Position numbers and translations under genes: made by a program
Part shown: piece by piece, positions 3,575 through 63,130 of the stretch
How the letters are laid out: each line of letters starts with the position of its first letter
Position numbering within the stretch: the stretch's first letter is position 1
Notes under the pieces: model-generated
Told to the model about the DNA's origin: nothing
Seen by the model: only the letters and a program-made list of their open reading frames with translations
Databases searched by the model: none
Source: Candidatus Spongiisociaceae bacterium
GTDB lineage: Bacteria; Actinomycetota; Acidimicrobiia; Spongiisociales; Spongiisociaceae
Reading direction: 5' to 3'
Length of the DNA: 64,000 bases
Assembly: GCA_965219685.1 (NCBI GenBank)
Contig: CBDCOH010000002.1
Coordinates: 2,688,001-2,752,000, forward strand

Positions 3575-3615
3575 ACTAGCAACTAGCAACTAGCAACTAG
3601 CAACTAGCAACTAGC
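3575..3615. repeat. Heptamer tandem repeat (ACTAGCA)x5 plus partial, overlapping the rplL stop
   Basis: actagca repeated; on the minus strand it reads TAGTTGC starting at the rplL TAG. Confidence 0.95.
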
Positions 3616-3994
3616 GTATCTCTACGCTGCCTCCGACGGCCTCGATCTTGCCCTTGGCGGCCTCGGCCTCCTCCTTGGAGACCGCCTCGAGCACGGTGTT
3701 GGGGATGCCGTCCACGACCGCCTTGGCCTCCTTGAGGCCGAGACGGGTGAGAGCGCGGACCTCCTTGATCACCTGGATCTTCTTGTCTCCCGAGGAGGTG
3801 AGCACGACGTCGAACTCCACCTGTTCCTCTTCGGGCTCGGCGGACGCGTCCTCGCCGGGCGCCATGGCAACCGCCATCGAAGCCGCCGCGGTCACATCGA
3901 AGTGACTCTCGAAGGCGTCCAAGAACTCTTTGAGCTCGAGGACCGTCATCTCCTCGAAAACGCTCAACAAGTCTGCGGTACTCATCGTGGCCAT
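3611..3994 (-). CDS. rplL: 50S ribosomal protein L7/L12
   Basis: EFDVVL...[21 protein letters not shown] motif; position next to rplJ. Confidence 0.98.
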
Positions 3995-4027
3995 GGTTCT
4001 CCTCCTGCGTGGGTGGTTTCCAGTGGT

Positions 4028-4582
4028 TTAGGGGGAATCGGACCCGGATACGGATCCGCCCTCCCCTGCTTCCTTCTTCTCGAGTAGTTGAGAGAACACG
4101 GAGGCGGCTTCGCGGCTGAGCGAACCCAGAAGGAACGCCGCCTTGGAAAGCGGTCCCTTCACTGCCCCGGCGATCTTCCCGAGTAGTGCCTCGCGGCCCT
4201 CGATCCTGGCGATGACCTCGATCTGGTGGGAGGCGATCACCTGGTCCTTCAGCAGCCCGGCCTTGACCACCAGGCCCTCGTTGTCCTTCCCGAAGTCCAC
4301 CAGAGCCTTGGCGGCGGGAACCGGATCATCGTCTACAAAAGCAACGGCGGTAGGGCCGGTCAACCATTCGTCGAGACCCTCATGACCGAGTTCGTGCAGT
4401 GCCCTGCGCGTGAGGGTCATCTTCAACACCTTGTAACGGGCGCCGGCCTCCCCGAGGGCGCGACGGAGTTCTTGCTGGCGAGCGACCGTCAGGCCGCGGT
4501 ACTCGGTGAGGAACGACGCCGAGGAACCGGCGAAGTAGTCCTTGATCTCTGCAACCGCCTTAACCTTCTCCGGTCGTGGCAT
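4028..4582 (-). CDS. rplJ: 50S ribosomal protein L10
   Basis: MPRPEKVKAVAEI...TEYRGLTV...GPTAVAF; synteny. Confidence 0.97.
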   Translation of the reverse strand: MPRPEKVKAVAEIKDYFAGSSASFLTEYRGLTVARQQELRRALGEAGARYKVLKMTLTRRALHELGHEGLDEWLTGPTAVAFVDDDPVPAAKALVDFGKDNEGLVVKAGLLKDQVIASHQIEVIARIEGREALLGKIAGAVKGPLSKAAFLLGSLSREAASVFSQLLEKKEAGEGGSVSGSDSP

Positions 4583-4681
4583 GAATCCTCCGCAGTCTTG
4601 GTGGCAGCGCCTGTGGTGGTATCAAGGCGAGCACCCTCCGATGAGCGAGACAGACGAGGGTACCCGAGAGACATCTCGAAT

Positions 4682-4770
4682 CAACCTCGGCAGGCGGATC
4701 CGTGTGGATCCCTTAAACCTTCAGAGCGGGAGTCGTCCCGTACCGCGGGTTACCGGCTGTCTGCGGCCCA
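4682..4770 (-). ncRNA. L10 leader (r-protein autoregulatory RNA)
   Basis: Minus strand CCGCAGACAGCCGGT...TTTAAG...CCTGCCGAGGTT upstream of rplJ resembles the L10-leader consensus. Confidence 0.75.
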
Positions 4771-4832
4771 TGGTTCCGGAACCTCTCCGGAGCCGTGCCG
4801 CAGCATAGACGGACGATGCGCGAAGGCCAAGT

Positions 4833-4913
4833 TGGTGGGTGGTGAATGGTGAGTGGTGAGTGGTGAATGGTGAGTGGTGAAGGCTCTACACACCACCAAT
4901 CACCAACTACCGA
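4833..4913. repeat. Bipartite heptamer array: (TGGTGRR)x7 left arm and CCACCAA-TCACCAA-CTACCGA right arm
   Basis: Left arm 4833-4881; right arm 4893-4913 includes the rplA stop; the arms are complementary. Confidence 0.9.
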
Positions 4914-5617
4914 CGCACTAGGCGATCAAGCCGGGAAGCGTCGACTTTCACTCCCGGACCCATGGTCGACGAGAGGGCGAGGTTCCTCAGATAGGTTCCC
5001 TTGGCAGCGGGCGGTTTTACCCTGACAATCTCGCCCACCAGAGCGGAGAGATTCTCGTGGAGCATGGCATCGTCGAACGAGACTTTCCCGATCGGGGCTG
5101 CGATGTTGCCGTAGCGGTCGTTCCGGTACTCGATCTTCCCGCCCTTGAACTCCCGCACGGTCCGGGCCACATCGCGAGTAATGGTGCCGGCCTTCGGGTT
5201 GGGCATGAGACCGCGGGGACCCAGCAGCCGCCCCAGGCGGCCCACCCTCGGCATCATGTCCGGGGTGGCGATAGCCACGTCGAAGGCGATCTCGCCCCCA
5301 GATGCGAGCATGTCGGCCAGATCCTGCCCGCCCACGACTTCGGCCCCGGCCTCCTCGGCCTCGAATTGCTTGTCCCCCCCTGCGAACACCGCAACGCGGA
5401 CCGAGCGGCCCGTTCCGTGCGGGAGGACGACCGTTCCCCTGACCAACTGGTCTGCCCTGCGAGGGTCGATTCCCAGCTTCATCACTGCCTCTACCGTCTC
5501 GTCGAAGCGGGCCGACGCCATGGTCCGGACCATCCGTATGGCTTCCGAGGGCGGGTAGGACAGGTACTTGTCGAACGTCGCGGCCATCTGGTTGTACCGC
5601 TTGCCTCTGCGGGCCAT
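4907..5617 (-). CDS. rplA: 50S ribosomal protein L1
   Basis: MARRGKRY...FDETVE...LPHGTG...[13 protein letters not shown]; ATG at 5617 with AAGGAGG SD. Confidence 0.98.
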
Positions 5618-5635
5618 GGTTCCTCCTTGTGGTGT

Positions 5636-5682
5636 TAGTGGTCTGCCTGCAAAACAACCTGTCGTGCCCTGCCAGCCAGGGA
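5636..5682 (-). promoter_or_regulatory. Possible L1-binding regulatory site before rplA
   Basis: TGGCAGG...GGCAGACCA stem with internal loop directly upstream of the rplA SD, in a long rplK-rplA spacer. Confidence 0.35.
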
Positions 5683-5844
5683 CGCCCCCGGCGGCGCATG
5701 CCACGACGCGATTTCACAGACAAAACCACTGGCGCCCCTGTCGGCCGAATGTCTTGGCATGCAACCGACGGACCACCGGCGAGCCGCCATGCAGCGGCTC
5801 TCCCAGCTATCTGTAACTTGTAGTGTCGGTCGAGCCCGACTGAC

Positions 5845-6273
5845 TCAGTCTGCGATGACGATCCCCATCGACCGGGCGGTACCGGCCACGATCTTCATCG
5901 CTCCCTCGACATCCGTCGTATTGAGATCGGGGAGCTTGGTCTCGGCGATCTGGCGAAGCTGATCCCGGGAAAGCGTGGCGACCTTCTCCCGGTTGGGCTC
6001 CGGAGAGCCCTTCTCGATCCTGGCCGCCTGCCGCAGCAGAACCGCGGCGGGCGGTGTCTTCGTCACGAACGTGAAGGACCGGTCGGCGTATATCGTAACC
6101 TCAGCCGGAACGATGGTCCCCAACTGGGTCTTGGTCGCCTCGTTGTAGGACCTGACGAACTCCATGATGTTTATCCCGTACTGGCCTAGCGCCGGACCGA
6201 CCGGCGGCGCGGGGCTGGCCTCCCCTGCCGGAATCTGGAGTTTCAGGATGGCTGTAACCCGTTTTCTACCCAT
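5845..6273 (-). CDS. rplK: 50S ribosomal protein L11
   Basis: [21 protein letters not shown]...GTARSMGI. Confidence 0.98.
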
Positions 6274-6349
6274 GATGGCCGATGTCCTTCGATCTTCCTC
6301 TTCAGTGTTCGGTGTGGAGCATCCCGGTCAAAAGGCCCGAGCCGCCCGC

Positions 6350-7198
6350 TCATTGCTTCTGGATCTCCTCGAATCCCAACTCCATCGGAGTGTCCCGGCC
6401 GAAGATCTCGACGAGCACGGTGACCTTCTGCCGATCGACGTTGATATCCTCAACCACTCCGTTGAAGTCGGCGAACGGACCCGATGAAACCCGCACCGTC
6501 TCCCCGATCTCCCATGCCGGCCGGAAACGAGGGGGCTTCTTGGCCGCCTCCTTCTTGAGACCGAGGAAGCGCTCGACCTCTCGCTTCGACAGGGAGGTCG
6601 GCTTGTTTCCTGTCCCCATCCCGACGAACGAGGTGACGCCCGGCGTGTTGCGAACTGCATGCCAGGAGTCGTCGTCCAGGTACATCCGGATGAGTAGGTA
6701 ACCGGGGAACATCCGCTTCTCAACCTCGACCTTGCGTCCCCCTTTGATCTCCACCACCTTCTCGGTCGGTATCACGACCTCGAAGATCCGGTCCTCCATG
6801 TGCATGGACGATGTACGAGTGGCCAGTCTCGCCTTGACCTTCTTCTCGTAGCCCGAATAAGCGTGGATCACGTACCAGGAACCCGGCTTGTCATACGGGC
6901 TGATCGGCTCCTCCTCGACCAGCTCCGCGACCTCGGTCGTGGCGGGTGGCTCGACGACTGGCTTGGGCTTGGCCGGCCGGGGCTTGGAGACCGTGCGGGG
7001 CTTGACAGCAGGTGCGGCGGTGGGATCCGGTTCAGGCGCTTGCGGCACCTCAGGCGGCACTTCCGGCAAGGAGCCATCGCTACCGAACCCTGCCGACAGC
7101 AGGGCCGCCCCCAGGGAGCCTACCGCTTCCTCCCCAGCCTCCCCTTGGGGCTCAGCGTCGAGGTCCTCGTCGACCGGAGGATGGGTACGGTCCGCCAC
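6350..7198 (-). CDS. nusG: Transcription termination/antitermination factor NusG with ~105-aa low-complexity N-terminal extension
   Basis: WYVIHAYSGYEKKVK...FPGYLLIRM...VRNTPGVTSFVG and KOW GPFADFNGVV. Confidence 0.96.
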   Translation of the reverse strand: MADRTHPPVDEDLDAEPQGEAGEEAVGSLGAALLSAGFGSDGSLPEVPPEVPQAPEPDPTAAPAVKPRTVSKPRPAKPKPVVEPPATTEVAELVEEEPISPYDKPGSWYVIHAYSGYEKKVKARLATRTSSMHMEDRIFEVVIPTEKVVEIKGGRKVEVEKRMFPGYLLIRMYLDDDSWHAVRNTPGVTSFVGMGTGNKPTSLSKREVERFLGLKKEAAKKPPRFRPAWEIGETVRVSSGPFADFNGVVEDINVDRQKVTVLVEIFGRDTPMELGFEEIQKQ

Positions 7199-7200
7199 GC

Positions 7201-7521: not shown

Positions 7522-7573
7522 ATCGATTCCTGTCCTATGTGGTTCCACCGGCGGGTTTCGCCGCGAACGAGTG

Positions 7574-7651: not shown

Positions 7652-7666
7652 CAGCCGTGGGGGGTG

Positions 7667-7696: not shown

Positions 7697-7705
7697 CCGA
7701 GTGCC

Positions 7706-7818
7706 GGTTGTCCGTTGTCGGTTGCCCGTCGGGTGACCGGGCAGCGCGGGGAGTGCCGTGGCACTCCGAGCATGTCAGGGGTCAGCGGAGGCATACCGCT
7801 GGCAACCGGCAACCGGCT
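7706..7818. repeat. Bipartite heptamer array: GGTTGTC-CGTTGTC-GGTTGCC left arm and (GGCAACC)x2 right arm
   Basis: Left 7706-7726, right 7801-7814 next to the anti-sigma stop (7819); arms complementary. Confidence 0.7.
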
Positions 7819-8780: not shown

Positions 8781-8800
8781 CTGGTTACAGGCTCCCGCTC

Positions 8801-17357: not shown

Positions 17358-17406
17358 ACTACCGATTGCCAACTATAGACTACAGACTACCGACTAGGAA
17401 CTAATC
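17358..17406. repeat. Degenerate heptamer array (ACTANNN)x7 abutting the hipA stop
   Basis: ACTACCG ATTGCCA ACTATAG ACTACAG ACTACCG ACTAGGA ACTAATC. Confidence 0.8.
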
Positions 17407-17408
17407 AT

Positions 17409-18632
17409 CTAGGCACGGAGTTGCTCGGCCCGCGCCGACATGTCGTCATGAAGCCGGGCGGTCGTGGGCGCATCGAAGCCGATTTCGCCGACCCGGTCTA
17501 TCCAAGCCGTGCTCTTCTCGCAGATCTCCTGGATCTTGCGGCGGGTGAGGCGGGGCGGAATATCGAAAGATCCGGCGAAACGAACCAGATCACGGCCGCG
17601 GATACGGTTGGCCCGACCGTCGACATGCAGGGCCAGGAGGTCGTCCACAGGGTAGGGACGGGTAGATACCAAGTCGTACGCCGGGGTGGGTTCCACGATC
17701 GATTCGGAGGGCACCCACCGCACGCTGATGTTCTTGGCGTGCATATCGCCGTTCACTATCAGGTAGGAAAACGCGGTCAGGCGGACCAACTCCAGAATAG
17801 CCGCCTTGGGTGACGAAGCCACTGTGGCCACCCTCCGAATGACCTCACGCATCGACAGACGATACTTGTCCGCCGGCCAGCGTCCAGACAACTGGCAGGC
17901 ATCTTCCTGAGCTATGCGGCTGACCACTCCCTCCTCGGTAACCCGGTCGAACCGCTCTACCAGCAGGCCCGACTTCCCCAAGCGATCCTGAACGACCCGT
18001 AGCGGCGGTACCCGGAACCCGCACGACGACGCCATGGCGAGGAAGAACGCCTCGTTCTCGACCAGTAGCGGATAGCGCTCAGGGGTGAGTTTCAGAATTG
18101 CCGGCCCACCTCCCGCCCTGACCGGGAAGGAAATGAGAGCATCGGAGAGCTTGTCCTGTACCCCTGGAATCGCGGTGTCGAACTGCTGGTCGGTCACGGA
18201 GACCGAGCGGGCGAACAACTCGGCGAACGAGACATCCGTAGGATCCTGCACGCCCGGGGTGGCACCCGGATCGAGAGGACGCTCTCCGACGGGCACCACC
18301 GTCACATCCCCGACCGCGTCACCGGCCACCACCAGCAGGAGAGACATCTCGTCGTCTGCAGAGGTCTTGGCGCCCGATATGATCGCCTGGAGCCGCGCCC
18401 CCTCGGGTAGCAACCCGGCAAAGAAGGCGGGAACCGCGCCTCCCGGAGTGCGGTACGGTTCTCGACGTACAGGAAGGGTCGATGCCACCCTTCGACCCCC
18501 CGCCCGCAAGTATCCCGGTTCATACGCGAACTCGACATGATCGGTCATCCGCCGAAGGCGCCCGGCGAGGACATCACGCTTGAACACATCGGCGACATCC
18601 ACCGCCTTGGCTTCGGAGGCGTCGCTGATCAA
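17409..18632 (-). CDS. hipA: HipA-family Ser/Thr kinase toxin
   Basis: N-terminal FFAGLLPEG; IPGVQDKLS; LLVERFDR; QEDACQ; NGDMHAKNIS; PAYDLVS. Confidence 0.93.
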   Translation of the reverse strand: MISDASEAKAVDVADVFKRDVLAGRLRRMTDHVEFAYEPGYLRAGGRRVASTLPVRREPYRTPGGAVPAFFAGLLPEGARLQAIISGAKTSADDEMSLLLVVAGDAVGDVTVVPVGERPLDPGATPGVQDPTDVSFAELFARSVSVTDQQFDTAIPGVQDKLSDALISFPVRAGGGPAILKLTPERYPLLVENEAFFLAMASSCGFRVPPLRVVQDRLGKSGLLVERFDRVTEEGVVSRIAQEDACQLSGRWPADKYRLSMREVIRRVATVASSPKAAILELVRLTAFSYLIVNGDMHAKNISVRWVPSESIVEPTPAYDLVSTRPYPVDDLLALHVDGRANRIRGRDLVRFAGSFDIPPRLTRRKIQEICEKSTAWIDRVGEIGFDAPTTARLHDDMSARAEQLRA

Positions 18633-21060: not shown

Positions 21061-21247
21061 CGGTTATCCGTTGCCCGTTGTCGCTTGCCCGTTGTACCGG
21101 GTGTCATGCGCGTGCTATCGGCTCGCTGTCCTAGCTGTCAACGCATCGTAGAGACTCGATGACCGACCACCACTCACCACTCACCACTCACCACTCACCA
21201 CTCACCACTCACCACTCACCACTCACCACTCACCACTCACCACTCAC
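21061..21247. repeat. Bipartite heptamer array: degenerate (CCGTTGY)x5 left arm and perfect (CACTCAC)x11 right arm
   Basis: Left 21061-21095 abuts the aldolase ATG; right 21171-21247 abuts the SDR stop. Confidence 0.93.
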
Positions 21248-22029
21248 TAATACGGTGTATCGCCGCCGTCGACGTTGATGGCCTGACCCCTGATGATCAG
21301 CGCATCGTCCGAAAGGAGAAAGGCGATCACCCTGCCCACCTCCAGCGCGCTCACCCTCCTCGCCAGTTGCGCAGGGCCCATACCCGACAGTAGCTGGTCG
21401 GCCGGTATGTCGAGGCGGGGGGACAACCACTCAGCCACGCCGCGTAGCATCGGGGTGTCGACGCCTCCTGGGCACACCGCGTTCACATTTATACGGTCTT
21501 CGGCCCACTCCATCGAAAGCGACCGGGTGAGACCGATCACCGCGGCCTTGGAGGCGTTATAGGCGGCCATGTTGCGGTAACCGACCTTGCCGCAGTTGGA
21601 CGAGACGTTGACGATGGAGCCTCCGCCGGTGGTCCTCAAGTGCATGCCGACGGCCTTCGCGACCAGGAAGGACCCGGTCACATTGACGTCCAACTGGCGG
21701 TTCCAATCGGAGGCGGTCGCGTCCCAGGCCTCGTCCAGCATCACCGCTCCAGCGTTGTTGACCGCACCGTCGAGGCGCCCGAACCGGTCCAACGTCCCCC
21801 GGACCGCAGCAGCGACATCTTCGACCGAGGAGACATCCCCCTGCAACGCACAGGTCGCGGAGCCATCGGGGTCTACCATCGCGGCGACCCTCTCCGCTCG
21901 GCCGAGATCCAGGTCCACGAGCGCCACCCGGCCACCCTCCTCCAGGATCGCTTGGGTGATGCCGGCCCCGATCCCTCCGGCGGCGCCGGTCACAAGGAAG
22001 ACCCGTCGCGCCAACCTGGGGGCGCTCAT
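21247..22029 (-). CDS. SDR family oxidoreductase (sugar/polyol dehydrogenase-like)
   Basis: VTGAAGGIG...NNAG...SSNCGK...YNASK...NAVCPGGVDT; start MSAPRL at 22029. Confidence 0.92.
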   Translation of the reverse strand: MSAPRLARRVFLVTGAAGGIGAGITQAILEEGGRVALVDLDLGRAERVAAMVDPDGSATCALQGDVSSVEDVAAAVRGTLDRFGRLDGAVNNAGAVMLDEAWDATASDWNRQLDVNVTGSFLVAKAVGMHLRTTGGGSIVNVSSNCGKVGYRNMAAYNASKAAVIGLTRSLSMEWAEDRINVNAVCPGGVDTPMLRGVAEWLSPRLDIPADQLLSGMGPAQLARRVSALEVGRVIAFLLSDDALIIRGQAINVDGGDTPY

Positions 22030-31669: not shown

Positions 31670-32737
31670 ATGAACGAAATAAGGGTGGCGATCGTGGGAG
31701 TCGGCAACTGTGCCTCCTCCTTCGTGCAGGGGGTGGAGTTCTACCGGGACGCACCAGCGGACCAGACCATCCCGGGGCTGATGCACCCCGTGCTGGGCGG
31801 CTACCACATCGGGGACATCCGTTTCGTGGCTGCGTTCGACGTGGACGCGGCCAAAGTGGGCCAGGACCTCTCCAAGGCGATCACCGCGGGTCAGAACAAC
31901 ACTGTTTCGTTCTGCGATGTCCCCGACCTCGACGTGGCGGTGCAGAGAGGCCCGACCCTGGACGGGATCGGCGCCTACATCGCCGGGGTGGTGGAGGAGT
32001 CAGCGGCCGTCGAGGTGGATGTGGCAGAGGTGCTGCGCCAAGCCCGGGCAGATGTGGTGATCTCGTACCTGCCTGTCGGGTCGCAAGCGGCGACCGAGTA
32101 CTACGTGGAGCAGGCGCTGGCGGCGGGATGTGCCTTCGTGAACTGCATTCCGGTGTTCATCGCCCGCACCGATGAGTGGGCGGACCGGTTCCGGGAGGCG
32201 GGACTCCCGATAGTGGGCGACGACATAAAGTCCCAGGTGGGTGCCACGATCCTGCACCGGACCCTCGTGAACCTCTTTCAGGATCGGGGGGTGAAGGTGG
32301 ACCGCACCTACCAACTCAACTTCGGGGGCAACACCGACTTCCTCAACATGTTGGAGAGAAGTCGCCTCGTGTCCAAGAAGGAGTCCAAGACCAAGGCGGT
32401 CACCAGCCAACTCGAGACCCGCATGCCGGTCGAGGACATCCATGTCGGGCCCTCGGACCATGTTCCGTGGCTGACCGACCGCAAGTGGGCCCACATCCGG
32501 CTCGAGGGCACCTCCTTCGGCAACACCCCGTTGGATGTCGAGGTCAAGTTGGAAGTATGGGACAGCCCCAACTCAGCCGGGGTGGTGATAGATGCCGTCC
32601 GCTGCGCGAAGCTTGGTCTGGACAGGGGACTATCAGGTCCACTTTATGAAGCCAGTGCGTACTTCATGAAGTCCCCACCCCGCCAGATGCGGGACGGTGC
32701 AGCAAGGGAAGCAGTGGAGCGGTTTATTCGTGGATAG
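31670..32737 (+). CDS. ino1: Inositol-3-phosphate synthase
   Basis: [13 protein letters not shown]...SYLPVGS...[12 protein letters not shown]...[13 protein letters not shown]...WDSPNSAG. Confidence 0.96.
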
Positions 32738-32747
32738 CGGCTGGCGG

Positions 32748-33002
32748 ATGGTGAATGGTGAATGGTGAATGGTGAATGGTGAATGGTGAATGGTGAATGG
32801 TGAATGGTGAATGGTGAATGGTGAATGGTGAATGGTGAATGGTGAATGGTGAATGGTAGACACAGCACGTAGATGCATAGTTTCAAGCTGTACCGCGAAT
32901 GCGATTGCCCTCCCCTCGGTGGCCCGCTCGAACTCGGACAGCCCTTGTCGACACCGGGGAAACTATGTGAACTGGCTCTAACCGTCGACTAACAACTAAC
33001 AA
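32748..33002. repeat. Bipartite heptamer array: perfect (ATGGTGA)x15 left arm and CTAACCG...(CTAACAA)x2 right arm
   Basis: Left 32748-32857 is 10 bp after the ino1 stop; right 32978-33002 overlaps the stop of the convergent Mo enzyme. Confidence 0.93.
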
Positions 33003-35302
33003 CTGATGATCGGTGGGGGAGCGAAGGCGGAGTGGATGGGGACCTCTCCCAGCCACTTCTCAACGCGGACCAGGCAGGTGTGGGCGGCGGGCCCTTGCGC
33101 CAAGCTGGACGTTCCGAGATCGGATGTGAGGGCATTGGGATTGCCGTGAAGGCAGGTGCGATCGAGATCCGGCTCGGGTCCGGGCGAGTACCAGGCGCCC
33201 GTCGCCAACTCCACCACGCCCCTGCGAAGCCGATCCGTAGTCGAGACCCCTGCCAGGCACGCTCCCCTGGCGTTGAAGACCCGCACGACATCGCCCGCCT
33301 CTATGCCGCGCACGTCCGCGTCGTCGGGATGCATGCGGATCGACTCGAGACCGGCGATCTTGGCTCTCCGACTTGTCGACCCGTGGTCCCACTGGCTGTG
33401 GAGCCGGGTCCGGGGCTGGTTGGACACGAGGTGAAGGTCGAGTTCGCCGGCCTCGCCCAACCACTCTCGCGGCGCCATCCAGGTTGGATGGGGTGGGCAG
33501 TCGTCGTATCCGAATCCGGCAATCGCCGACGAGTACAACTCGATGCGGCCCGACGGGGTAGACAGCGGGTGGCGCTCCGGATCCTCGCGGAAGTCCTCTA
33601 GCAGGATCCGCTTGGGCTGATCACCCGCATACCGCCGGTCCAGGAACCCTGCTTCCCAGAACTCCTCGAACGCGGGGCAACCCGGCTCACGCTGCCGCAG
33701 CTTCTCGTAAAGATGCCGTACCCATTGATCCGAGGTCCGTCCCTCGGAGAAACCGTCACCAACTCCGAGCCGGTCCGCCAGCCCGCCGAAGATCTCGTAG
33801 TCGTTCCGGGCTCCACCCACCGGGGCGAGGGCCTGCTGGATGGCGAAGATATGAGTGTCGGTAGGAGCTCCGCCCAGATCGTTCCGCTCGAGCGCAGTCG
33901 TAGACGGTAGGACCACGTCGGCGTGCTTGGCCGTCGCCGTCCAGAAAGGCTCGTTGACGACCACCGTGTCCGGACGCTGCCAGGCCGTGCGTAGCCGGTT
34001 CAGGTCTTGGTGGTGATGGAAGGGGTTCCCTCCTGCCCAGTAGACCAGCCGGATGTCCGGGAAGGTGTAGGTGCCGCCGTCGTACGTGAACTCGTCGCCT
34101 GGATGGAGCAGCATGTCGGAGATGCGCGCCACCGGTATGAACGAGTCGATCGGCCGCCTCCCCCAGGGAAGGAAGGGAAGCCATGAGTTCGTTGATCCGT
34201 TACCGACCGAGGCCATCGCCCCGTACCCGATGCCGAGACCTCCACCAGGAAGGCCGATCTGGCCGACCGCCGCCGCAAGGGCGATGGCCGCCCAGATCAC
34301 ATGCTCGCCGTGGTGGGACCTCTGGAGTGACCAACTGACGTTGATCATCGATCGCCGCTCGACCAGCGAGCGGGCCAACGACCGGATCTCGGAAGGGCGG
34401 ATCGTGGTGATGCCGGAAGCCCACTCGGCGTCCTTGGCGATCCCGTCCTCGGAGCCGGTTACGTAGGCGGCGAGGGCGTCCCAACCGGTGCAGTGGTCGC
34501 GAACAAAAGCGCGGTCGTAGGAGCGGTCGGCTATGAGCGTGTGGATGAGCGCCAGCATGAGAGCGATGTCGGTACCCGGCCTGATGGGCACCCAGGCCGG
34601 CCGGAGCGAATCTCCCAGGTCGTCGGCTATGGGTGAGACGTTGACAAAACGCGCACCCCCGTCCGCCCAGCGGCGCAACCAGCCTCGGAGTTCATGACGG
34701 CCTACCCCTCCGTGCTCGATCTGGGCGTTCTTGAGAGGGATGCCCCCGAAGGCCACCACCAGTTCGGTGCTCTCTGCGATCACATCCCAGGAGGTAAGCG
34801 CGTTCTGGAAGCGCCACCAGCCGAGCCCGAGCACATGGGGCAGGATGACCTCGGCAGCAGCGAGGCTGTACGTGTTGACCGACCGCGTGTACCCGCCGAT
34901 CGAGTTCATGAACCGGTGAAGCTGGGTGGGCGCATGGTGGAAGCGGCCCGCACTGGCCCAGCCGTACGAGCCCGCATAGATGGATTCGTTGCCGAACTCC
35001 GTCCGCACGCGGTCCAATTCGGCAGCCACGAGATCGAGCGCACGGTCCCATCCGAGCTCCACGAACCTGTCTTTCCCGCGCCTCTCGGGAGCAGTCCCCG
35101 GCCCACCTTCCAGCCAACTCTCCCTCACCGACGGCATCCTGACCCGGCACCGCTCCACACCGACCATCGAGTACCCGATCGGGGAAGGATCCGGGTCGTC
35201 CCTAAACGGTCGCACCGCGCGAATGGACCGTCCCTCGGTCTCCACCTCGTAGGCACCCCAATGGGTGAGGGTCAAGGTCGAGTTTCGTTTCGCATCGCTC
35301 AA
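32996..35302 (-). CDS. Molybdopterin oxidoreductase, BisC/TorA (DMSO reductase) family, apparently cytoplasmic
   Basis: THWGAY...SYGWASAGRFH...TYSLAA...WAGGNPFHHHQD...RLHSQ; no twin-arginine signal seen. Confidence 0.92.
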   Translation of the reverse strand: MSDAKRNSTLTLTHWGAYEVETEGRSIRAVRPFRDDPDPSPIGYSMVGVERCRVRMPSVRESWLEGGPGTAPERRGKDRFVELGWDRALDLVAAELDRVRTEFGNESIYAGSYGWASAGRFHHAPTQLHRFMNSIGGYTRSVNTYSLAAAEVILPHVLGLGWWRFQNALTSWDVIAESTELVVAFGGIPLKNAQIEHGGVGRHELRGWLRRWADGGARFVNVSPIADDLGDSLRPAWVPIRPGTDIALMLALIHTLIADRSYDRAFVRDHCTGWDALAAYVTGSEDGIAKDAEWASGITTIRPSEIRSLARSLVERRSMINVSWSLQRSHHGEHVIWAAIALAAAVGQIGLPGGGLGIGYGAMASVGNGSTNSWLPFLPWGRRPIDSFIPVARISDMLLHPGDEFTYDGGTYTFPDIRLVYWAGGNPFHHHQDLNRLRTAWQRPDTVVVNEPFWTATAKHADVVLPSTTALERNDLGGAPTDTHIFAIQQALAPVGGARNDYEIFGGLADRLGVGDGFSEGRTSDQWVRHLYEKLRQREPGCPAFEEFWEAGFLDRRYAGDQPKRILLEDFREDPERHPLSTPSGRIELYSSAIAGFGYDDCPPHPTWMAPREWLGEAGELDLHLVSNQPRTRLHSQWDHGSTSRRAKIAGLESIRMHPDDADVRGIEAGDVVRVFNARGACLAGVSTTDRLRRGVVELATGAWYSPGPEPDLDRTCLHGNPNALTSDLGTSSLAQGPAAHTCLVRVEKWLGEVPIHSAFAPPPIISC

Positions 35303-40986: not shown

Positions 40987-41131
40987 GGTGTCTGGATGTC
41001 CGATGTCGGTTGTCCGATGTACGTCGTCGGTTGTCCGATGTCGGCACTCACTCAGCTACCGGGGAGGGTTCCGACCACGAATCGACGAGGCGTGATAGCC
41101 CTTACCGGCAACCGGCAACCGGCAACCGGCG
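40987..41131. repeat. Bipartite heptamer array: degenerate (SGWTGTC)x8 left arm and (ACCGGCA)x4 right arm
   Basis: Left 40987-41042; right 41104-41131 next to the hybrid kinase stop (41135). Confidence 0.88.
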
Positions 41132-41134
41132 ACG

Positions 41135-59209: not shown

Positions 59210-59666
59210 CTTCCTGGCTGATTTTCTCCTGCAGCAGGACGATCCCGTCCATCAGGGCCTCCGGACGGGGTGGGCAGCCCGGTACGTAGACATCCACCGG
59301 GATGATCTGGTCGACTCCCTTGGTCACCGAGTAGGAGTCCCAGTACGGCCCCCCGCAGTTGGAACAGGAGCCCATCGAGATCACGTACTTGGGCTCGGGC
59401 ATCTGCTCGTACAGCCGCTTGACGGCCGGAGCCATCTTGTCGGTCACGGTCCCCGCCACCACCATCAGATCCGCCTGCCGTGGTGAGGCGGGCAGGGGGA
59501 TGATGCCGAAGCGCATGAAGTCGTATCGGGGACCGGACGCGGCCATCATCTCGATGGCACAGCAGGCGAGTCCGAACTGGAACAGCCACAGCGAGTACCG
59601 ACGCGACCAGTTCAGGAGCCACGAGACCGGCTTGAGCCCGCCGAACCGCTCGGCGACTACGCCCAC
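59166..59666 (-). CDS. nuoB: NADH-quinone oxidoreductase subunit B
   Basis: GLACCAIEM...SPRQAD...MGSC...[14 protein letters not shown]. Confidence 0.96.
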
Positions 59667-59682
59667 GACCGCGCCTCCGTCC

Positions 59683-60048
59683 TCACTCCCACTTCAGCAC
59701 CCCCTTGCGCACCGCGTAGAGAAGCCCTTCGAGCAGGGTGAGGATGAAGATGATGACGGCGATCACCCCCGGCAGGCCGAGATCCTCCGCAACGATCGCC
59801 CACGGGAAGATGAACACCGCCTCCACGTCGAACAGAACGAACAGCAACCCGAATATGTAGTAGCGGACGAAGGTCTGGTTCCACCCGTCGCCCACCGGAT
59901 CGACGCCGCACTCGTAGGTGGACATCTTCTCCTTGCCCGGGTTGGAGGGTCGCACGAGGTAGGTGATCCCGAGCGTGAGAGCCACCAGGACGACACCGAA
60001 AGCGGCGAAGGCAGCCACCGCGATGTAGTCCTGGAAGTATTCGCTCAC
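59683..60048 (-). CDS. nuoA: NADH-quinone oxidoreductase subunit A
   Basis: K...YECG.DP...RYY...[15 protein letters not shown]; GTG start at 60048. Confidence 0.93.
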
Positions 60049-60281
60049 GATCGCTCCGCTGTCGCTCGCCGCTTGCCTGGTAGGGCCGCCGGGACGTGGG
60101 CTCCGATCCGTCCCGTGCGGGCCGCGTCGGGACACACTCCTGCATCTGCCGAACCCTGGCGAGTATAGGTGCCAACCCCGTCCCCATGAATTCGGCCGGT
60201 GCTCCGCCCGGGTCCGCGGAGCAGGCGCTGCGGCGCGGCGACCGAACGGGATTCCACAGGCACGCCGCTACCGTTCGGCCG

Positions 60282-61406
60282 GTGACCATCCCCTCCGATC
60301 TCCTGGCTCCCGACTACTCGGGGGGATCCCTCAACAACCTGGTCGCCGAGTTGGAATGGCGCCTGGCCGGGTCCGCGCCCTCCCCCCGGCTCCGCACCGA
60401 CGTAGCGGATTGCATTCCAACCGCAGCCACCTACATCCTCTTCCTGATCGACGGGCTCGGCGTGCATCAACTCCGCCATCCGGCCGCAGGAGGGCTCGCG
60501 TCCTCGCATCGGGGGACTATCCACGCCCCCTTCCCGACCACCACGACCGTGAGCCTGGCGTGTGTCGCCACCGGCCTTCCTCCGGCTCGGCATGGCTTCA
60601 TCGGACACTTCCTCCTTCTCGACGGCCATCCTCGCCCCGTCAACGGGCTCAGGTGGATCGACACCGCCGGCCGCCCGGTTGGGTCCTACGCTGCGGGCCT
60701 CCTCCCGGCCCCCAACCTGTGGGAGCGGCTCGGCGCGGCCGGCGTCGAGGCGGTCACCGTCCAGCCGGACGCCTTCGCCGGAACCCCCCTGACAAAATCC
60801 CTCTACCGGGGTTGCCGGTTCGAGGGGGTGACGGGGACCGACGAACTGGTGCGGGCTGCGGTCGAGCTTGCCCGGGTGCCCGGGCGGCTCCTCTTCGTCT
60901 ACTACCACCTAGTCGACGTAGCGGCCCATATGCAGGGCCCGTCGAGCCGCGCCTACGCGCATGCGCTGGCCGATGCTTCCAACGCCTGGGATCGCATCGC
61001 GGCCCGCCTCCCCAGCCACGTCGCCATGATCGGGACCGCGGATCACGGGGTGCTCTCGATTCCAGAACCGGGGAAGCTCCGGCTGCGCAGCCGGGACACA
61101 CCGGGCCTGACCCTCTTCGGCGACCCCCGGTCCCTCTACGTCACCGGGCCCCGTGAGCGGATAGAGGACTTGGGCCGGTGCCTGCCCGCCACTTGGCACC
61201 CGCTCGAAGCGCTTGCATTGCTGTGGGGCGCCGGATCAGACCTCGGAACGAGGGTCCAACCGAGTCGTGTACGCAAACCGAGCGGCGCGTTCCTCGCTGA
61301 CCGTGGTCGCGTGCTTCTCCCCGGCCATATGGATACGCGCCTGGTCGGCTACCACGGGGGCCTGGAACCGGAAGAGGTGGAAATACCCATCCTACTTTCC
61401 GGATGA
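60282..61406 (+). CDS. Alkaline phosphatase superfamily / nucleotide pyrophosphatase-phosphodiesterase
   Basis: LIDGLG...FPTTT...TG.PP..HG...D.AAH..G...TADHG...HGGL.PEE; GTG start inferred. Confidence 0.85.
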   Translation: MTIPSDLLAPDYSGGSLNNLVAELEWRLAGSAPSPRLRTDVADCIPTAATYILFLIDGLGVHQLRHPAAGGLASSHRGTIHAPFPTTTTVSLACVATGLPPARHGFIGHFLLLDGHPRPVNGLRWIDTAGRPVGSYAAGLLPAPNLWERLGAAGVEAVTVQPDAFAGTPLTKSLYRGCRFEGVTGTDELVRAAVELARVPGRLLFVYYHLVDVAAHMQGPSSRAYAHALADASNAWDRIAARLPSHVAMIGTADHGVLSIPEPGKLRLRSRDTPGLTLFGDPRSLYVTGPRERIEDLGRCLPATWHPLEALALLWGAGSDLGTRVQPSRVRKPSGAFLADRGRVLLPGHMDTRLVGYHGGLEPEEVEIPILLSG

Positions 61407-61626
61407 GCAACCCGGCGCCGGGTTCCGGCCTCTCAGCAGTCCATCTGGCTGCCTCCTGGAGACCGGCACGCACCGCCACCCGCGGCGGCTGATCACGAGG
61501 TGCACGAACCACGCACGGCTTCCGGTGTGAAGCCGGTGCGGTACTCGGGGTCGCCCGCCGGATCGGCCCTTTCACGGCGGACTCTGTCCAGGTTCTCCGA
61601 TATAGGGAACCACGTGTATATGGGTG

Positions 61627-62970
61627 CTACGTGCAGAGAGGCTCGTACCTGAGCCGGTGCAAGGCCAGTTCCTCCAGAATGATCTCCAGGCCGCGGACCG
61701 TCTGGGCGCGGTTACCGCCTCCGTCGTGCATCAGGACCACCGATCCATCGGTGAGGCGAGTCAGTATCCGATCGGCGATGGCTTCGCCATCGAGACCTTC
61801 CCAGTCGTTGGCGCTGACCGACCACAGATGCACCTCGAGCCCGTGCTCGGCCGCCCAGGTCCGAGTGTGTGTACGGGTCGCCCCATAAGGGGGTCGCAAG
61901 CACGGAGTGGCGTAGTCACCGAGGATCTCCTGTGTCCTCCCTATCGTCTGGTCGAACTGCTGGCGGGACAGCTTGGCGAGGTTCTCGTGGTTCCACGTGT
62001 GGTTCGCCACCGTGTGGCCCTCGGAGATGATCCTTTGGAAGAGATCCGGATAGCCGGCCACCAGCCTGCCGACCACGAAGAACGTGGCCCGAGCGTTGTA
62101 ACGAGCGAGTATGTCGAGGATGTGGGGGGTGTTGCGCGGGTCGGGACCGTCGTCGAAGGTCAGGTACACCACGCTCCCGGGCTCGATCGAGGATCTCGTG
62201 GAGATGGGCGGGGGTGGCAGGACACGTATTGTCAACGCGTAGTCGTTGAAGTCGTCGCGCGTGGAGACCACTCCCACCGTCCACGAACCCCCGGAGGGCA
62301 GCGCTGTCTCCACCCGCTGCGACCGCTCTTCCTCGGAGACGATCACCTCCTCATCGAGCCGTAGGTCGATCCATACGCCATCGCGGGCATCGACAGCGGC
62401 CAGCAGCGACTGGCCCGCAGCGGCGTGGACCGTGTAGGCCAGGCGGCGGTCCGGCCCGATCGAGCCGACCACCGTGGCGTGTATCTCCCCCCGGTCGAAC
62501 CGCACGTCTGAGTCCGGCCGGTACCGTCCCGAGAGCAGTATGTCCGATGCCAACGAGAGACGGCTACGCGAGACCTCGGGAGCCGCCCCCACCGGGTCAG
62601 GGGATGGATCCTCAACGGTGACGGGAGTCTCTTCCCCGTTCCGGGCGGAGGAGGCGGTCTCGGGCTGCTCGACCGGCTCGGTGACCGTTTGGGAAACCTC
62701 TTCCCGTGTCACCTCGCCCTCGGAAGCGGGCGCGGTCGTCGGGAGGGTCGACGCGGGAACGGTCCCGTCTTGACGGTCGTCCGGAACAGTCGAGGCTTCT
62801 AGGTTCCCGGCCGGGTCTCGTTCGGCCTCCTGGGCCGATTCGCGGACCGCTTCGACGGGATCCTCTCCGAATTCGGCGCCGCCCGAGTCGCTCGGAGTAT
62901 CCGAACACGCAACCACCAGCAGCAGCGCCAGACCGGCCACCGCACAACCGACCTTCCACCAGCGGTTCAT
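61627..62970 (-). CDS. Polysaccharide deacetylase (NodB/CE4) lipoprotein
   Basis: Lipobox LLLVVAC; acidic/Pro/Thr linker; YLTFDDGP...ATFFV...NHTWNH...RPPYG...LMHDGGG. Confidence 0.9.
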   Translation of the reverse strand: MNRWWKVGCAVAGLALLLVVACSDTPSDSGGAEFGEDPVEAVRESAQEAERDPAGNLEASTVPDDRQDGTVPASTLPTTAPASEGEVTREEVSQTVTEPVEQPETASSARNGEETPVTVEDPSPDPVGAAPEVSRSRLSLASDILLSGRYRPDSDVRFDRGEIHATVVGSIGPDRRLAYTVHAAAGQSLLAAVDARDGVWIDLRLDEEVIVSEEERSQRVETALPSGGSWTVGVVSTRDDFNDYALTIRVLPPPPISTRSSIEPGSVVYLTFDDGPDPRNTPHILDILARYNARATFFVVGRLVAGYPDLFQRIISEGHTVANHTWNHENLAKLSRQQFDQTIGRTQEILGDYATPCLRPPYGATRTHTRTWAAEHGLEVHLWSVSANDWEGLDGEAIADRILTRLTDGSVVLMHDGGGNRAQTVRGLEIILEELALHRLRYEPLCT

Positions 62971-63047
62971 CCGAACAAACCATCCCCTCGAAACCCAAAC
63001 AGGCCTGATACGGAAACCTCCGCGATCACCATCACAAGATACACCCG

Positions 63048-63091
63048 GCTGGACCCTATCCGGTGCCTATCCGGGTAGGCAGCAGTCCAGC
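63048..63091. terminator. Stem-loop downstream of qor (possible terminator)
   Basis: GCTGGAC...TGCCTA-TCCGGG-TAGGCA...GTCCAGC nested inverted repeat; no clear U-tract. Confidence 0.35.
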
Positions 63092-63102
63092 TGGTCGCGC
63101 CG

Positions 63103-63130
63103 TCAACCAACTACCAACTACGGACCAATC
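63103..63130. repeat. Degenerate heptamer array abutting the qor stop
   Basis: TCAACCA ACTACCA ACTACGG ACCAATC. Confidence 0.6.

Follow-up and report, generated by a model that had tools for sequence, protein, structure and literature searches.

Heptanucleotide repeat arrays at gene ends in a 64,000-nt stretch of a Candidatus Spongiisociaceae genome

Background

Tandem arrays of 7-nt units lie between the genes of the stretch of DNA analysed here (64,000 nt; hereafter the window), and many of them begin at a stop codon. What are these arrays, and why are they placed in this way? The earlier note on this DNA held that independent slippage would not give units of unrelated sequence a common period and a common polarity, and proposed an unrecognised process, such as an empty cassette or insertion site, a non-autonomous element or a transcript 3'-end signal.

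Arrays in the window

Tandem Repeats Finder (TRF) gave 51 rows, of which 12 had period 7 (starts at 3575, 4840, 7707, 7801, 17372, 21068, 21168, 32748, 32988, 40995, 41104 and 63106). All 12 lie inside eight spacers between annotated genes, and every array listed in the earlier note was recovered. The arms are as follows.

3575..3615, minus strand: lone arm, (TAGTTGC) x5.9 on the rplL sense strand (TRF, 100% matches, score 82), in the rplL-rpoB spacer (426 nt); its first TAG is the rplL stop (3611-3613)
4889..4909, minus strand: stop-proximal arm of rplA, TAGTTGG TGATTGG TGGTGTG (G+T 0.90); its first TAG is the rplA stop
4833..4881, plus strand: distal arm of the rplA element, TGGTGAR x7 on the plus strand (TRF periods 7/14/21); C/A-rich on the transcribed minus strand, pairs with 4889-4909
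7801..7818, minus strand: stop-proximal arm, GGTTGCC x2.4 (TRF), 1 nt past the TGA of an anti-sigma-like ORF (7819-8220)
7706..7729, plus strand: distal arm, GGTTGTC CGTTGTC GGTTGCC on the plus strand, complementary to 7801-7818; closes a branched fold that lies upstream of a promoter-like site (7696-7667) for tRNA-Trp
17358..17411, minus strand: lone degenerate arm of hipA, TAGTNNN units (TRF); its first TAG is the hipA stop (17409-17411)
21168..21249, minus strand: stop-proximal arm of the SDR gene 21247-22218, TAGTGAG then TGGTGAG x10 (TRF, 11.4 copies, 100%); its TAG is the stop of that gene
21061..21100, plus strand: distal arm, CGTTGYC-type on the plus strand (TRF); C/A-rich on the sense minus strand, not complementary to 21168-21249, adjoins the ATG (21058-21060) of an aldolase/SDR gene whose start has no Shine-Dalgarno
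32735..32860, plus strand: arm of ino1, TAG CGGC, TGGCGGA, then TGGTGAA x15 (TRF, 15.7 copies, 100%, score 220), in register with the ino1 TAG stop (32735-32737)
32988..33004, minus strand: short arm, TTGTTAG x2.4 (TRF), overlapping the last codons and TAG stop (32996-32998) of a convergent molybdopterin oxidoreductase gene
41104..41134, minus strand: stop-proximal arm, GCCGGTT x3.9 (TRF), 4 nt past the TGA of a histidine kinase/response regulator gene
40987..41042, plus strand: distal arm, GATGTCC/GGTTGTC units on the plus strand (TRF), partly complementary to 41104-41134 and 66 nt upstream of ackA
63103..63121, minus strand: lone short arm, TAGTTGG x2.3 (TRF), 11 nt past the TAG of a zinc-ADH gene

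The region 32748-33002, described before as one bipartite element, consists of two separate arrays, one for each of two convergent genes (ino1 and molybdopterin oxidoreductase).

Perfect period-7 arrays of at least 17 nt numbered seven; 200 Markov-1 simulations gave 0.10 on average and never more than one. The same scan of the window gave two arrays at period 4 (5.6 expected), one at period 5 (1.6 expected), four at period 6 (0.55 expected) and none at periods 8-12. Period 7 is the sole enriched non-coding period in the window, and the arrays described in the earlier note are real. Copy number spans 2.3 to 15.7 and the longest array measures 110 nt. Four arrays are 100% perfect by TRF (3575, 21168, 32748 and 41104), a pattern expected of recent expansion.

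Read in the G/T-rich orientation, GTTG occurs at least twice in 8 of the 13 arms and GGTGA 6-15 times in 3 of the 13, and the motif TAGT recurs in six arms. Repeat grouping joined 4833 with 32748 and 21168, and 7707 with 21070 and 40995. The unit sequence had been called not conserved; the arrays of this genome are instead one loose unit family around GTTG or GGTGA on the G/T-rich strand. Within the eight degenerate arrays tested, no position-specific conservation was significant (p 0.07-0.65).

Placement and polarity relative to stop codons

Nine gene ends run straight into an arm whose G/T-rich strand is the sense strand and whose units keep a 7-base register with the stop codon. Over the 35 nt that begin at the stop, 8 of 52 gene ends reached a threshold of 15 matches out of 28 at lag 7, and each of the other lags between 3 and 12 reached it at 0-1 ends; of the regions upstream of 51 starts, two did so at lag 7. 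In eight of the nine ends the periodic segment begins between -6 and +15 nt, counted from the stop's first base. At the ninth, rplA, the automated choice of segment fell on the distal arm, and the degenerate proximal arm begins at 0. Compared with uniform placement in the spacer, stop proximity at the eight ends scored (all but rplA) has a combined p of 1e-8. Placement is not random but linked to gene 3' ends, in agreement with the earlier note, which had also described the arms as starting at or near the stop codon with their G/T-rich strand on the sense side.

G+T in the first 28 nt after the stop is 0.61-0.86 at all nine array ends (binomial p 0.004), against 0.48 ± 0.12 at the other 43. 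G minus C is positive in each of the nine stop-proximal segments, with (G-C)/(G+C) of 0.05-1.00 versus a mean of -0.05 elsewhere, and the G-rich arm is transcribed first in five of five bipartite elements. The stop codon is TAG at 7/9 array ends and at 7/43 others (Fisher p 0.0007). Five of the nine proximal arms hold stops in all three frames and two more in two of three; the two GGTTGCC-type arms hold them in none of the three. A second in-frame stop, read by eye from the registers, lies 1-7 codons downstream at all seven TAG ends.

Folding of the arms

An arm-to-arm hairpin was found in only three of the eight spacers, at likely operon boundaries. The minus-strand folds are those of 4826-4909 (-23.7 kcal/mol, z -2.05, 5/200 shuffles as good), 7700-7821 (-58.8 kcal/mol, z -4.19, 0/200) and 40988-41137 (-62.3 kcal/mol, z -2.20, 4/200). 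The 4833 and 7706 arm pairs had been recognised as complementary, and those at 21061 and 32748 as not so, which the folds bear out: the whole spacer of the 21061/21168 arms has z +1.72 (193/200 shuffles fold as well), and that of the 32735/32988 arms has z +2.34 and hence no arm pairing. The 40987/41104 pair is complementary too, which the earlier note did not say. Long perfect arrays have less structure than shuffled sequence. For the lone arms, z was -0.21 at hipA (not significant) and -1.45 at zinc-ADH.

Terminator scans found no canonical terminator at the arrays. None of the 14 terminator-like sites coincides with an array and the sequence read after the 4833 and 7706 hairpins contains no U tract, so that terminator activity is a matter of conjecture. 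The proposal of a transcript 3'-end signal is plausible for the three spacers that fold into long hairpins at likely operon boundaries; the other five lack arm pairing.

Related loci and other lineages

The closest L1 relatives of the window are Acidimicrobiia (60-65% identity). The rplL C-terminus has equal length in 69 of 70 related loci; the array therefore begins at the ancestral stop, and arrays add downstream DNA with the stop unmoved. In the rplK-rplA spacer of locus L001 the conserved L1 leader follows the stop after ~14 nt, and at this place L004, L007 and L008 have inserted heptamer arrays of differing units and lengths. The element behind rplL is common to L004 and L007, with different copy numbers. 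Judged from these spacers, arrays are gained and lost between related species.

Ten of 72 related loci have unrelated genes, from unrelated families, inserted between rplA and rplJ. Four of the ten (L001, L004, L006 and L008) have any period-7 rows, none of them by TRF in the rplA-rplJ interval, and the other six have no such rows. Junctions in five of the ten are ordinary GC hairpins (with a T run in L001 and L009) and have no heptamer arms. The suggestion that relatives might carry genes between the arms thus found no backing at the junctions examined. At the matching place behind rplA, relatives carry ordinary terminator hairpins.

In other lineages, lag-7 periodicity was present at 9 of 417 conserved gene ends versus 0-2 for other lags, and units differ between lineages. 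The best-scoring segments of these nine ends have G+T of 0.24-0.57, so polarity is not kept outside this genome, and one of them holds stops in all three frames; in three of the nine, the segment scored is the distal arm.

Comparison with known systems

The arrays are heptanucleotide simple-sequence repeats (SSRs), a class already catalogued in many bacteria. STRR repeats of heterocystous cyanobacteria are built of a few heptamers, repeated in tandem at numerous scattered intergenic positions. The units and the phylum are different here, the nearest L1 relatives of the window being Acidimicrobiia. STRR, mentioned through a Calothrix citation in PMC4692102, was the only known system in the earlier note, a list that is too narrow in view of the heptamers of Xanthomonas and Nostoc (PMC4692102).

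For the G-rich heptamers of Xanthomonas (GGGAATC) and Nostoc (GGGGAYT), Rehm et al. 2015 already reported a heptamer excess and a placement rule: the G-rich strand is sense just after a stop or antisense just before a start, often in inverted pairs (PMC4692102). Array length varies between Xanthomonas species (PMC4692102). As here, those repeats are tandem 7-nt units, strongly intergenic, in a genome of ~65% GC, with the G-rich strand on the sense strand at most 50 bp after a stop (stop overlap included) or on the antisense strand upstream of a gene, and with many convergent inverted pairs (PMC4692102). Excess, stop-proximal sense placement and inverted pairs were thus known, and the argument against slippage fails because the units here are related and because the period-7 excess and the polarity rule are in print for Xanthomonas and Nostoc (PMC4692102). 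Units here, from a different lineage, contain GG at most and never GGG, so they cannot form the G-quadruplex of four tracts by which the Xanthomonas/Nostoc class is defined; those of the TAGTTGC family lack any run of G. In the part of PMC4692102 cited here, no mention was found of an exact stop register or a TAG bias.

Most repeat-rich genomes have more heptamers than any other kind of long SSR, and slippage of the polymerase has been proposed as the cause (Mrazek, Guo and Shah 2007, via PMC4679880 and PMC4692102). The 7-nt excess, the sporadic phylogenetic spread including Actinobacteria and the proposed slippage are shared (PMC4679880), but that survey describes a statistical class, whereas the element here has a defined position. 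The TAACTGA direct repeats of marine Beggiatoaceae, suggested targets of S1, Csp and CsrA binding (MacGregor 2015, PMC4679880), are likewise intergenic heptamers with stop triplets in the unit, occur also within ribosomal-protein operons, and in some cases adjoin starts without Shine-Dalgarno, as the 21061-21100 arm does here. They have a single unit in 2-6 copies, mostly just upstream of starts (PMC4679880), whereas the present arrays are stop-anchored, the arms upstream of the next gene are C/A-rich partners, and only 21061-21100 abuts a start.

With REP/BIME, intercistronic stem-loops and intrinsic terminators the arrays share extragenic hairpins after genes, in three of the eight spacers; REP/BIME-type hairpins sit at operon boundaries or inside operons. 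Unlike REP/BIME, the arrays have no conserved palindromic unit and the window has no REP-associated transposase, and unlike intrinsic terminators, they coincide with none of the 14 terminator-like sites and lack arm pairing in five of the eight spacers.

Origin and function

The best explanation as a whole, to which we give an even chance, is that the arrays are heptanucleotide SSRs made by slippage, some of them forming hairpins at operon boundaries. We infer slippage as the most likely maker of the arrays in this organism from the period-7 enrichment, the four perfect arrays, the variation of unit and length among relatives and the lack of a shared core. The three arm-to-arm folds, of which that of 7700-7821 is followed by a promoter-like site, and the terminator hairpins of relatives behind rplA suggest that some arrays most likely act as hairpins at operon boundaries.

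Arrays would arise and change size in place via replication slippage or template switching. They would be seeded where the local sequence already resembles the unit, at a stop triplet with a T/G-rich tail, and would persist only at harmless positions and in a harmless orientation: outside reading frames, with the back-up-stop strand on the sense side. With a complementary second arm (3/8 spacers), fold and position suggest that the transcript would form a long hairpin at the operon boundary, probably a terminator without U tract or a 3' stabiliser. Long perfect arrays lack structure and probably contribute little function by themselves.

Some observations fit local slippage poorly. Unit cores recur at 7-8 separate spacers, which is hard to explain by independent events, and neither the exact start at the stop (combined p 1e-8) nor the TAG bias (7/9 vs 7/43) is easily explained. 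The preference for 7 over 5 or 8, which recurs after conserved stops of unrelated lineages (9/417), is unexplained by slippage, and a back-up-stop benefit does not cover the two GGTTGCC-type arms (0/3 frames).

HutP reads UAG triplets at a spacing of four bases, and by analogy the arrays could be a periodic platform on which a single-stranded RNA or DNA binder with a footprint of ~7 nt (a cold-shock, S1 or OB-type protein, or a ring protein) coats the RNA after the stop; binding would then adjust termination or decay, or how well the next gene is translated. The strict register with the stop, the recurrence of a few related cores at separate loci, as for a recognised motif, and the unstructured long arrays (z +1.72 and +2.34) would suit such a binder, as would the 21061-21100 arm next to a start without Shine-Dalgarno, like the TAACTGA repeats (PMC4679880). 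In Nostoc, deletion of heptamers altered reporter output and a binding partner was postulated (bioRxiv 10.1101/2022.06.06.494920). We nevertheless regard this reading as unlikely: the degenerate arrays lack significant position-specific conservation, units vary and polarity is lost in other lineages, no candidate binder is present in the window, and the range of copy number argues against a fixed stoichiometry. Less likely again are fail-safe translation stops: units with TAG or TGA, which place a stop in every frame over 21 nt, would have been selected for halting ribosomes that read through or shift frame, stops by chance being scarce in a GC-rich genome. The frame counts of seven proximal arms, the second in-frame stops at the TAG ends (read by eye from the registers) and the TAG enrichment agree with this, but three units would suffice and arrays of 11 and 16 copies exist, the two GGTTGCC-type arms have no stops, distal arms are left unexplained, and three-frame stops occur in only 1/9 best-scoring segments of other species (3/9 scored on the distal arm). 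Rho requires C-rich unstructured RNA, and might set the orientation: the untranslated sense RNA, G-rich and C-poor, would offer no loading site, while the C-rich, G-poor antisense RNA would load Rho and end antisense transcription into the gene. The positive G minus C at every array end, the early transcription of the G-rich arm in all bipartite elements and the matching polarity of the Xanthomonas repeats (PMC4692102) point this way; since polarity fails in other lineages with arrays and period 7 is left unexplained, we think it very improbable.

A mobile or site-specific element, be it MITE- or REP-like and non-autonomous or the arms of an empty cassette, had been among the earlier suggestions. 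It would account for related arms at several loci (families D1, D4 and D11), for a 21-nt arm-like stretch within a coding region (36659-36679, 20/21 match) and for an rplA-rplJ boundary that accepts foreign genes in relatives (10/72 loci). Core comparison and repeat search in the window found no core shared between arms and no long flanking repeat, and the repeat search at a 12-nt seed listed no terminal inverted repeats or target duplications beside the arrays. A distance of 1.2 kb separates the window's sole transposase ORF (ISL3, 38557-39750) from the closest array, and the inserted genes of relatives are of unrelated families and without heptamer arms (by TRF, and at the junctions of 5/10). 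We consider such an element a distant prospect and retain slippage as the preferred origin. Short-read assemblers can mis-size perfect short repeats, yet it is barely conceivable that the arrays are assembly artefacts: the longest is 110 nt, their flanks join conserved gene ends correctly, and genomes of other species that were assembled independently, among them records labelled as complete chromosomes (L033), have arrays of like layout.

Period-7 arrays behind stop codons

Stop-anchored heptamer arrays are real and dense in the window. Tandem Repeats Finder (TRF), run on the whole window, gave 51 rows, of which 12 had period 7; the rows of periods 14 and 21 were the same arrays. All 12 period-7 rows fell in 8 spacers between annotated genes, which are named below by the start of the array.

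Spacers with period-7 arrays and the start positions of their TRF rows
Spacer 3575, behind rplL: 3575
Spacer 4833, behind rplA: 4840
Spacer 7706, behind the anti-sigma-like ORF: 7707 and 7801
Spacer 17358, behind hipA: 17372
Spacer 21061, behind an SDR gene: 21068 and 21168
Spacer 32748, between the convergent genes ino1 and an oxidoreductase: 32748 and 32988
Spacer 40987, behind a kinase/regulator gene: 40995 and 41104
Spacer 63103, behind a zinc-ADH gene: 63106

Perfect arrays with a span of two units and three bases or more were counted against 200 Markov-1 simulations. Period 7 gave 7 such arrays, whereas the simulations averaged 0.10 and never exceeded 1. The corresponding figures were 2 versus 5.6 for period 4, 1 versus 1.6 for period 5 and 4 versus 0.55 for period 6, and no perfect arrays of periods 8 to 12 were seen. 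The excess of period 7 over periods 5, 6 and 8, without which the idea of the earlier note would have fallen, was thereby confirmed. The density was 9 arrays per 36 free gene ends, as counted roughly by a script whose list includes a few artefacts of overlapping annotation. Head-to-tail 7-nt repeats beyond chance length, dispersed over 8 intergenic spacers in 64 kb with a small set of units, are what is seen in long simple sequence repeats (SSRs) and STRR-like repeats.

With every spacer printed seven bases to a row, read on the upstream gene's sense strand from the first base of the stop codon, the arrays were in 7-base register with that codon.

Rows of seven at the nine array ends, starting with the stop codon
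rplL: TAGTTGC, five times
SDR gene: TAGTGAG, then TGGTGAG ten times
ino1: TAGCGGC, TGGCGGA, then TGGTGAA 15 times
rplA: TAGTTGG, TGATTGG, TGGTGTG
Oxidoreductase gene: TAGTTGT, TAGTCGA
Anti-sigma-like ORF: TGAAGCC, then GGTTGCC twice
Kinase/regulator gene: TGACGTC, then GCCGGTT three times
hipA: TAGATGA-T, then TAGTNNN units
ADH gene: TAGGGGA, TTGGTCC-G, then TAGTTGG twice

In the first 35 nt after the stop, 8 of the 52 protein-gene ends had at least 15 of 28 matches at lag 7, and each of the other lags from 3 to 12 gave 0–1 such ends. Upstream of starts the lag-7 count was 2 of 51. In 8 of the nine ends, a script for the maximal periodic segment placed its beginning between −6 and +15 nt relative to the stop; at rplA it chose the stronger distal arm, i.e. 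the second arm of the element. With rplA left out, the 8 scored ends gave a combined p of 1e-8 under uniform placement of the arms in the spacers. The stop codon was TAG at 7 of the 9 array ends versus 7 of the 43 other ends (Fisher p 0.0007). The rplL protein ended at the identical residue in 69 of 70 related loci, which indicates an array that begins at the ancestral stop without having displaced it.

Polarity and unit sequences

The G + T content of the 28 nt after the stop was 0.61–0.86 at the nine array ends versus 0.48 ± 0.12 at the other 43. On the sense strand all nine proximal arms (those behind the stop) were G/T-rich, and all four distal arms, which precede the next gene of the same direction (4833, 7706, 21061 and 40987), were C/A-rich. 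The G/T-rich orientation was on the plus strand for 5 of the 13 arms and on the minus strand for 8. The polarity is therefore relative to the gene, and an explanation by replication strand was rejected.

The earlier note had described the units as unrelated in sequence, which proved wrong. In the G/T-rich orientation, GTTG occurs at least once in 10 of the 13 arms and at least twice in 8; we estimate that a random G/T-rich heptamer would contain it in some rotation with a chance of about one in nine. GGTGA occurs 6–15 times in three arms, and TAGT recurs in six. Repeat grouping placed 4833 with 32748 and, as reverse complement, with 21168, and put 7707, 21070 and 40995 together. Judged by these motifs, the units look like a small related family scattered over a single genome, a pattern shared with other repeat-rich bacteria.

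A 21-nt stretch within a purine-nucleoside-phosphorylase-like gene (36659–36679) matches the arm at 7712–7732 in 20 of 21 positions; this could be chance, or the trace of an arm within a coding region.

Folding and transcription signals

Arm-to-arm pairing was predicted on the transcribed strand in three of the eight spacers.

Spacers with arm-to-arm pairing
4826–4909, transcribed strand: −23.7 kcal/mol, z −2.05; boundary after rplA, where relatives have ordinary terminator hairpins
7700–7821, transcribed strand: −58.8 kcal/mol, z −4.19; boundary after the sigma/anti-sigma pair, directly before a promoter-like site for tRNA-Trp
40988–41137, transcribed strand: −62.3 kcal/mol, z −2.20; boundary between the kinase gene and ackA

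It is plausible that these three hairpins sit at operon boundaries. The lone arms gave no significant fold (z −1.44, −0.21 and −1.45). The spacers 21058–21249 and 32735–32998, the arms of which are not complementary, folded worse than 193 of 200 and 200 of 200 shuffles, respectively (z +1.72 and +2.34); the z of −3.81 for 32735–32880 reflects weak periodic A-U/G-U self-pairing (−27 kcal/mol over 146 nt). A hairpin as common feature of the arrays was therefore rejected.

A scan of 3000–22000 and 30000–45000 found 14 terminator-like sites, none of them on an array, and canonical terminators and promoters at the arrays of these two stretches were rejected. The GC-rich hairpin with U tract of an intrinsic terminator was not seen at these arrays; hairpins without a U tract could still terminate. 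One promoter-like match (3582–3553, 9/12) takes its TTGCTA from an array. Among the Rfam covariance models run on the window only 4 tRNAs reached the gathering score, and the arrays matched no structured RNA family.

The best promoter-like match of the region (TTTACA, 18 nt, TATACT; 10/12) lies on the minus strand at 7696–7667, between the heptamer hairpin and tRNA-Trp, and fits a promoter for tRNA-Trp-secE-nusG. At 21058–21100 the arm that is C/A-rich on the sense strand abuts the ATG of the aldolase/short-chain-dehydrogenase gene, and nothing resembling a Shine-Dalgarno sequence lies between them; the start call looks right, because the Pfam domain begins at residue 31.

Arrays in other lineages

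The window has a GC content of 61–69%. One set of its genes, all on the minus strand, comprises tRNA-Tyr, tRNA-Thr and tRNA-Met, tuf, rpmG, a MaoC dehydratase, an ECF sigma factor with the anti-sigma-like ORF, tRNA-Trp, secE, nusG, rplK, rplA, rplJ, rplL and rpoB; after this set come metabolic genes, a hipBA-like pair, an ISL3 transposase and a nuo operon of 11 genes. Gene order and the nearest L1 (rplA) relatives are actinobacterial (Acidimicrobiia). No close relative was found by a scan with the L1 protein of one genome per species, in which the top matches were Acidimicrobiia MAGs with 60–65% identity.

In 80 loci found with the L1 protein in genomes of other species, the stops of secE, nusG, rplK, rplA, rplJ, rplL and tuf were located, 417 ends in total. 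With a threshold of at least 25 of 45 matches directly after the stop, lag 7 was found at 9 of the 417 ends, lags 3, 5, 6, 8 and 9 at none, lags 4, 10 and 12 at 1 each and lag 11 at 2. The nine lag-7 ends belong to 7 of the 80 species (loci L004, L006, L007, L008 and L033, all five labelled Acidimicrobiia or a subgroup, as well as L067 and L080), and most are bipartite hairpins that reach from the stop to just before the next ribosome-binding site. Units and G/T polarity vary among these species, and G/T polarity as a general rule was rejected. GTTGG-like units in L031 and L067 resemble those of the window, a likeness that we treat as coincidence; most of the other arrays lack such units, and a unit shared across phyla was rejected.

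The rplK-rplA spacer of L001 has about 14 nt from the stop to the conserved L1 leader, and L004, L007 and L008 have arrays there, with differing units. An element behind rplL is common to L004 and L007 with different copy numbers. These comparisons show gain, loss and length changes of arrays over the time that separates species. In L007 the GC-rich terminator hairpin behind rplL occurs in two copies about 36 nt from each other (4990–5110), and in L004 in a single copy; the doubling is a local duplication beside the heptamer element.

The earlier note had suggested that the arrays mark a cassette or an insertion site. Of 72 related loci, 10 have more than 600 nt between rplA and rplJ (0.7–3.2 kb; L001, L004, L006, L008, L009, L013, L021, L024, L043 and L053), and this interval is filled with unrelated genes, among them genes for an NB-ARC/cyclase protein, an AMP-binding enzyme, alpha/beta hydrolases, a zinc ADH, GNAT acetyltransferases and an SDR. 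The rplKA/rplJL boundary is a recurrent site of gene gain. TRF found no period-7 array in these intervals, and at the junctions read in five of the loci there were GC hairpins of the ordinary kind, with a T run behind them in L001 and L009. The suggestion was therefore not upheld. Within the window there is no cargo between the arms, and none of the 68 ORFs scanned with Pfam is an integrase, which does not describe an integron-type cassette. The three GTTG-type elements align in their arms only (57% mean column identity, driven by the arms), and a repeat search of the window found no other sequence shared between elements, unlike MITE- or REP-like elements.

Relation to known repeats

STRR repeats proper, those of heterocystous cyanobacteria, have units which we take to differ from those of the window, and the host of the window is actinobacterial; the arrays do not belong to that class.

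Heptanucleotides are the commonest long SSRs in most repeat-rich genomes, including Actinobacteria, and polymerase slippage was proposed as their source (Mrazek, as summarised in PMC4679880 and PMC4692102). Rehm et al. (2015; PMC4692102) describe arrays of GGGAATC in Xanthomonas (65% GC) and of GGGGAYT in Nostoc, placed preferentially up to 50 bp after a stop on the sense strand, stop overlap included, or antisense upstream of a gene. They give 70–75 convergent inverted pairs per Xanthomonas genome and lengths that differ among species, and found no function. The sense G-rich placement near the stop and the inverted pairs recur here (9 of 9 proximal and 4 of 4 distal arms; 3 complementary pairs). 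However, those G-quadruplex heptamers need at least 4 runs of at least 3 G per array, and a G-quadruplex reading was rejected since TAGTTGC, TGGTGAR, GGTTGCC and TAGTNNN contain no GGG. The placement published for Xanthomonas and Nostoc is the polarity rule of the earlier note, which holds at the array ends of the window and fails in the other lineages compared here.

The TAACTGA arrays of MacGregor (2015; PMC4679880) adjoin start codons, mostly a few nt upstream, also within ribosomal-protein operons, and S1, Csp or CsrA-like binders were proposed for them. The window arrays, in contrast, lack TAACTGA and are anchored to stops (8 of 52 ends versus 2 of 51 starts). According to a Nostoc preprint (bioRxiv 10.1101/2022.06.06.494920), deletion of heptamers affects reporters, and an unidentified binder is postulated. 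Among the papers returned by a literature search, none deals with such arrays in Acidimicrobiia or settles their function.

With these arrays, a repeat class with published placement rules gains a new lineage and a new family of units. The bacterial heptamer excess has been recognised since 2007, without accepted cause or function, and the window adds a dense set from a high-GC, Acidimicrobiia-like lineage. It also sharpens the description, in that arrays start at and in register with the stop, favour TAG and have few related unit cores. No new mechanism is revealed, and the stop-anchored lag-7 rule is simple and testable in a genome-wide survey.

Origin of the arrays

With the period, placement, register, polarity, related units, hairpins in three of eight spacers and turnover as observations, we give about even chances to arrays born by slippage, kept by selection for harmless orientation and acting as hairpins where arms are paired. 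Arrays would arise and change length through slippage or template switching, probably seeded where the stop and a T/G-rich tail already resemble the unit. Selection would keep them only outside reading frames and in the harmless orientation, and complementary pairs may serve as terminator-like hairpins without U tract or as stabilising hairpins. This reading does not explain why 7 is preferred, why the anchoring is exact or why cores are shared. A conserved process with a 7-nt step, writing or maintaining arrays from the translation stop codon, would account for the same period after conserved stops in unrelated phyla, for the stop register and for the cores shared within a genome. Its link might be to the ribosome at termination or to RNA polymerase that has just become uncoupled, or it might act through a factor with a 7-nt footprint, and if true, heptamer arrays would be a widespread, unrecognised punctuation of gene 3' ends; we consider such a process quite improbable.

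A periodic binding platform is unlikely, although less so than the 7-nt-step process. Position-specific constraint in degenerate arrays (e.g. TAGT kept, NNN free) would speak for a binder, but the test for it gave no significant result (p 0.07–0.65, 8 arrays). Fail-safe stops rank marginally below the 7-nt-step process, and an orientation shaped by Rho lower again. A mobile element or cassette is very improbable and was rejected on the unrelated cores and on the inserted genes of relatives, which lack heptamer arms. That the arrays are an artefact is extremely unlikely, as they also occur in loci of other species and so are not confined to one assembly.

Other features of the window

The ORF at 7819–8220 (133 aa) has a GTG start overlapping the stop of the ECF sigma gene and gave no Pfam hit. 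An H-x3-C-x2-C motif and a hydrophobic segment at the C-terminus are present, presumably as in zinc-binding anti-sigma factors. GC skew was −0.27 at 10001–12000 (the tuf/tRNA stretch) versus about −0.07 to +0.06 in all other 2-kb windows.

A small ORF without Pfam match (18636–19010) precedes hipA. Immediately upstream of and overlapping its start, at 19007–19046, a 16-nt unit is repeated 2.5 times (91% matches, score 73), which looks like the operator repeats of a hipBA-type module.

The ISL3-family transposase ORF (38557–39750) overlaps the 3' end of ackA (39682–40920, opposite strand), and the Pfam match of ackA ends at profile position 379 of 392 (residue 373 of 412); the C-terminus of ackA may therefore have been replaced by the ISL3 insertion. 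No terminal inverted repeats of the element were found in 38300–39900.

At 45700–49700, beside the nuo operon, ORFs without Pfam hits surround an HTH_66/DUF433 gene, a RhuM-Fic gene and a second small DUF433 ORF (49354–49665), and 46505–46796 is repeated directly at 49323–49614 (292 nt, 72% identity). This region may be a toxin-antitoxin or mobile patch. The nuo operon itself (49718–60135) encodes subunits A–D and H–N only, with nuoH directly after nuoD and no E, F or G in between.
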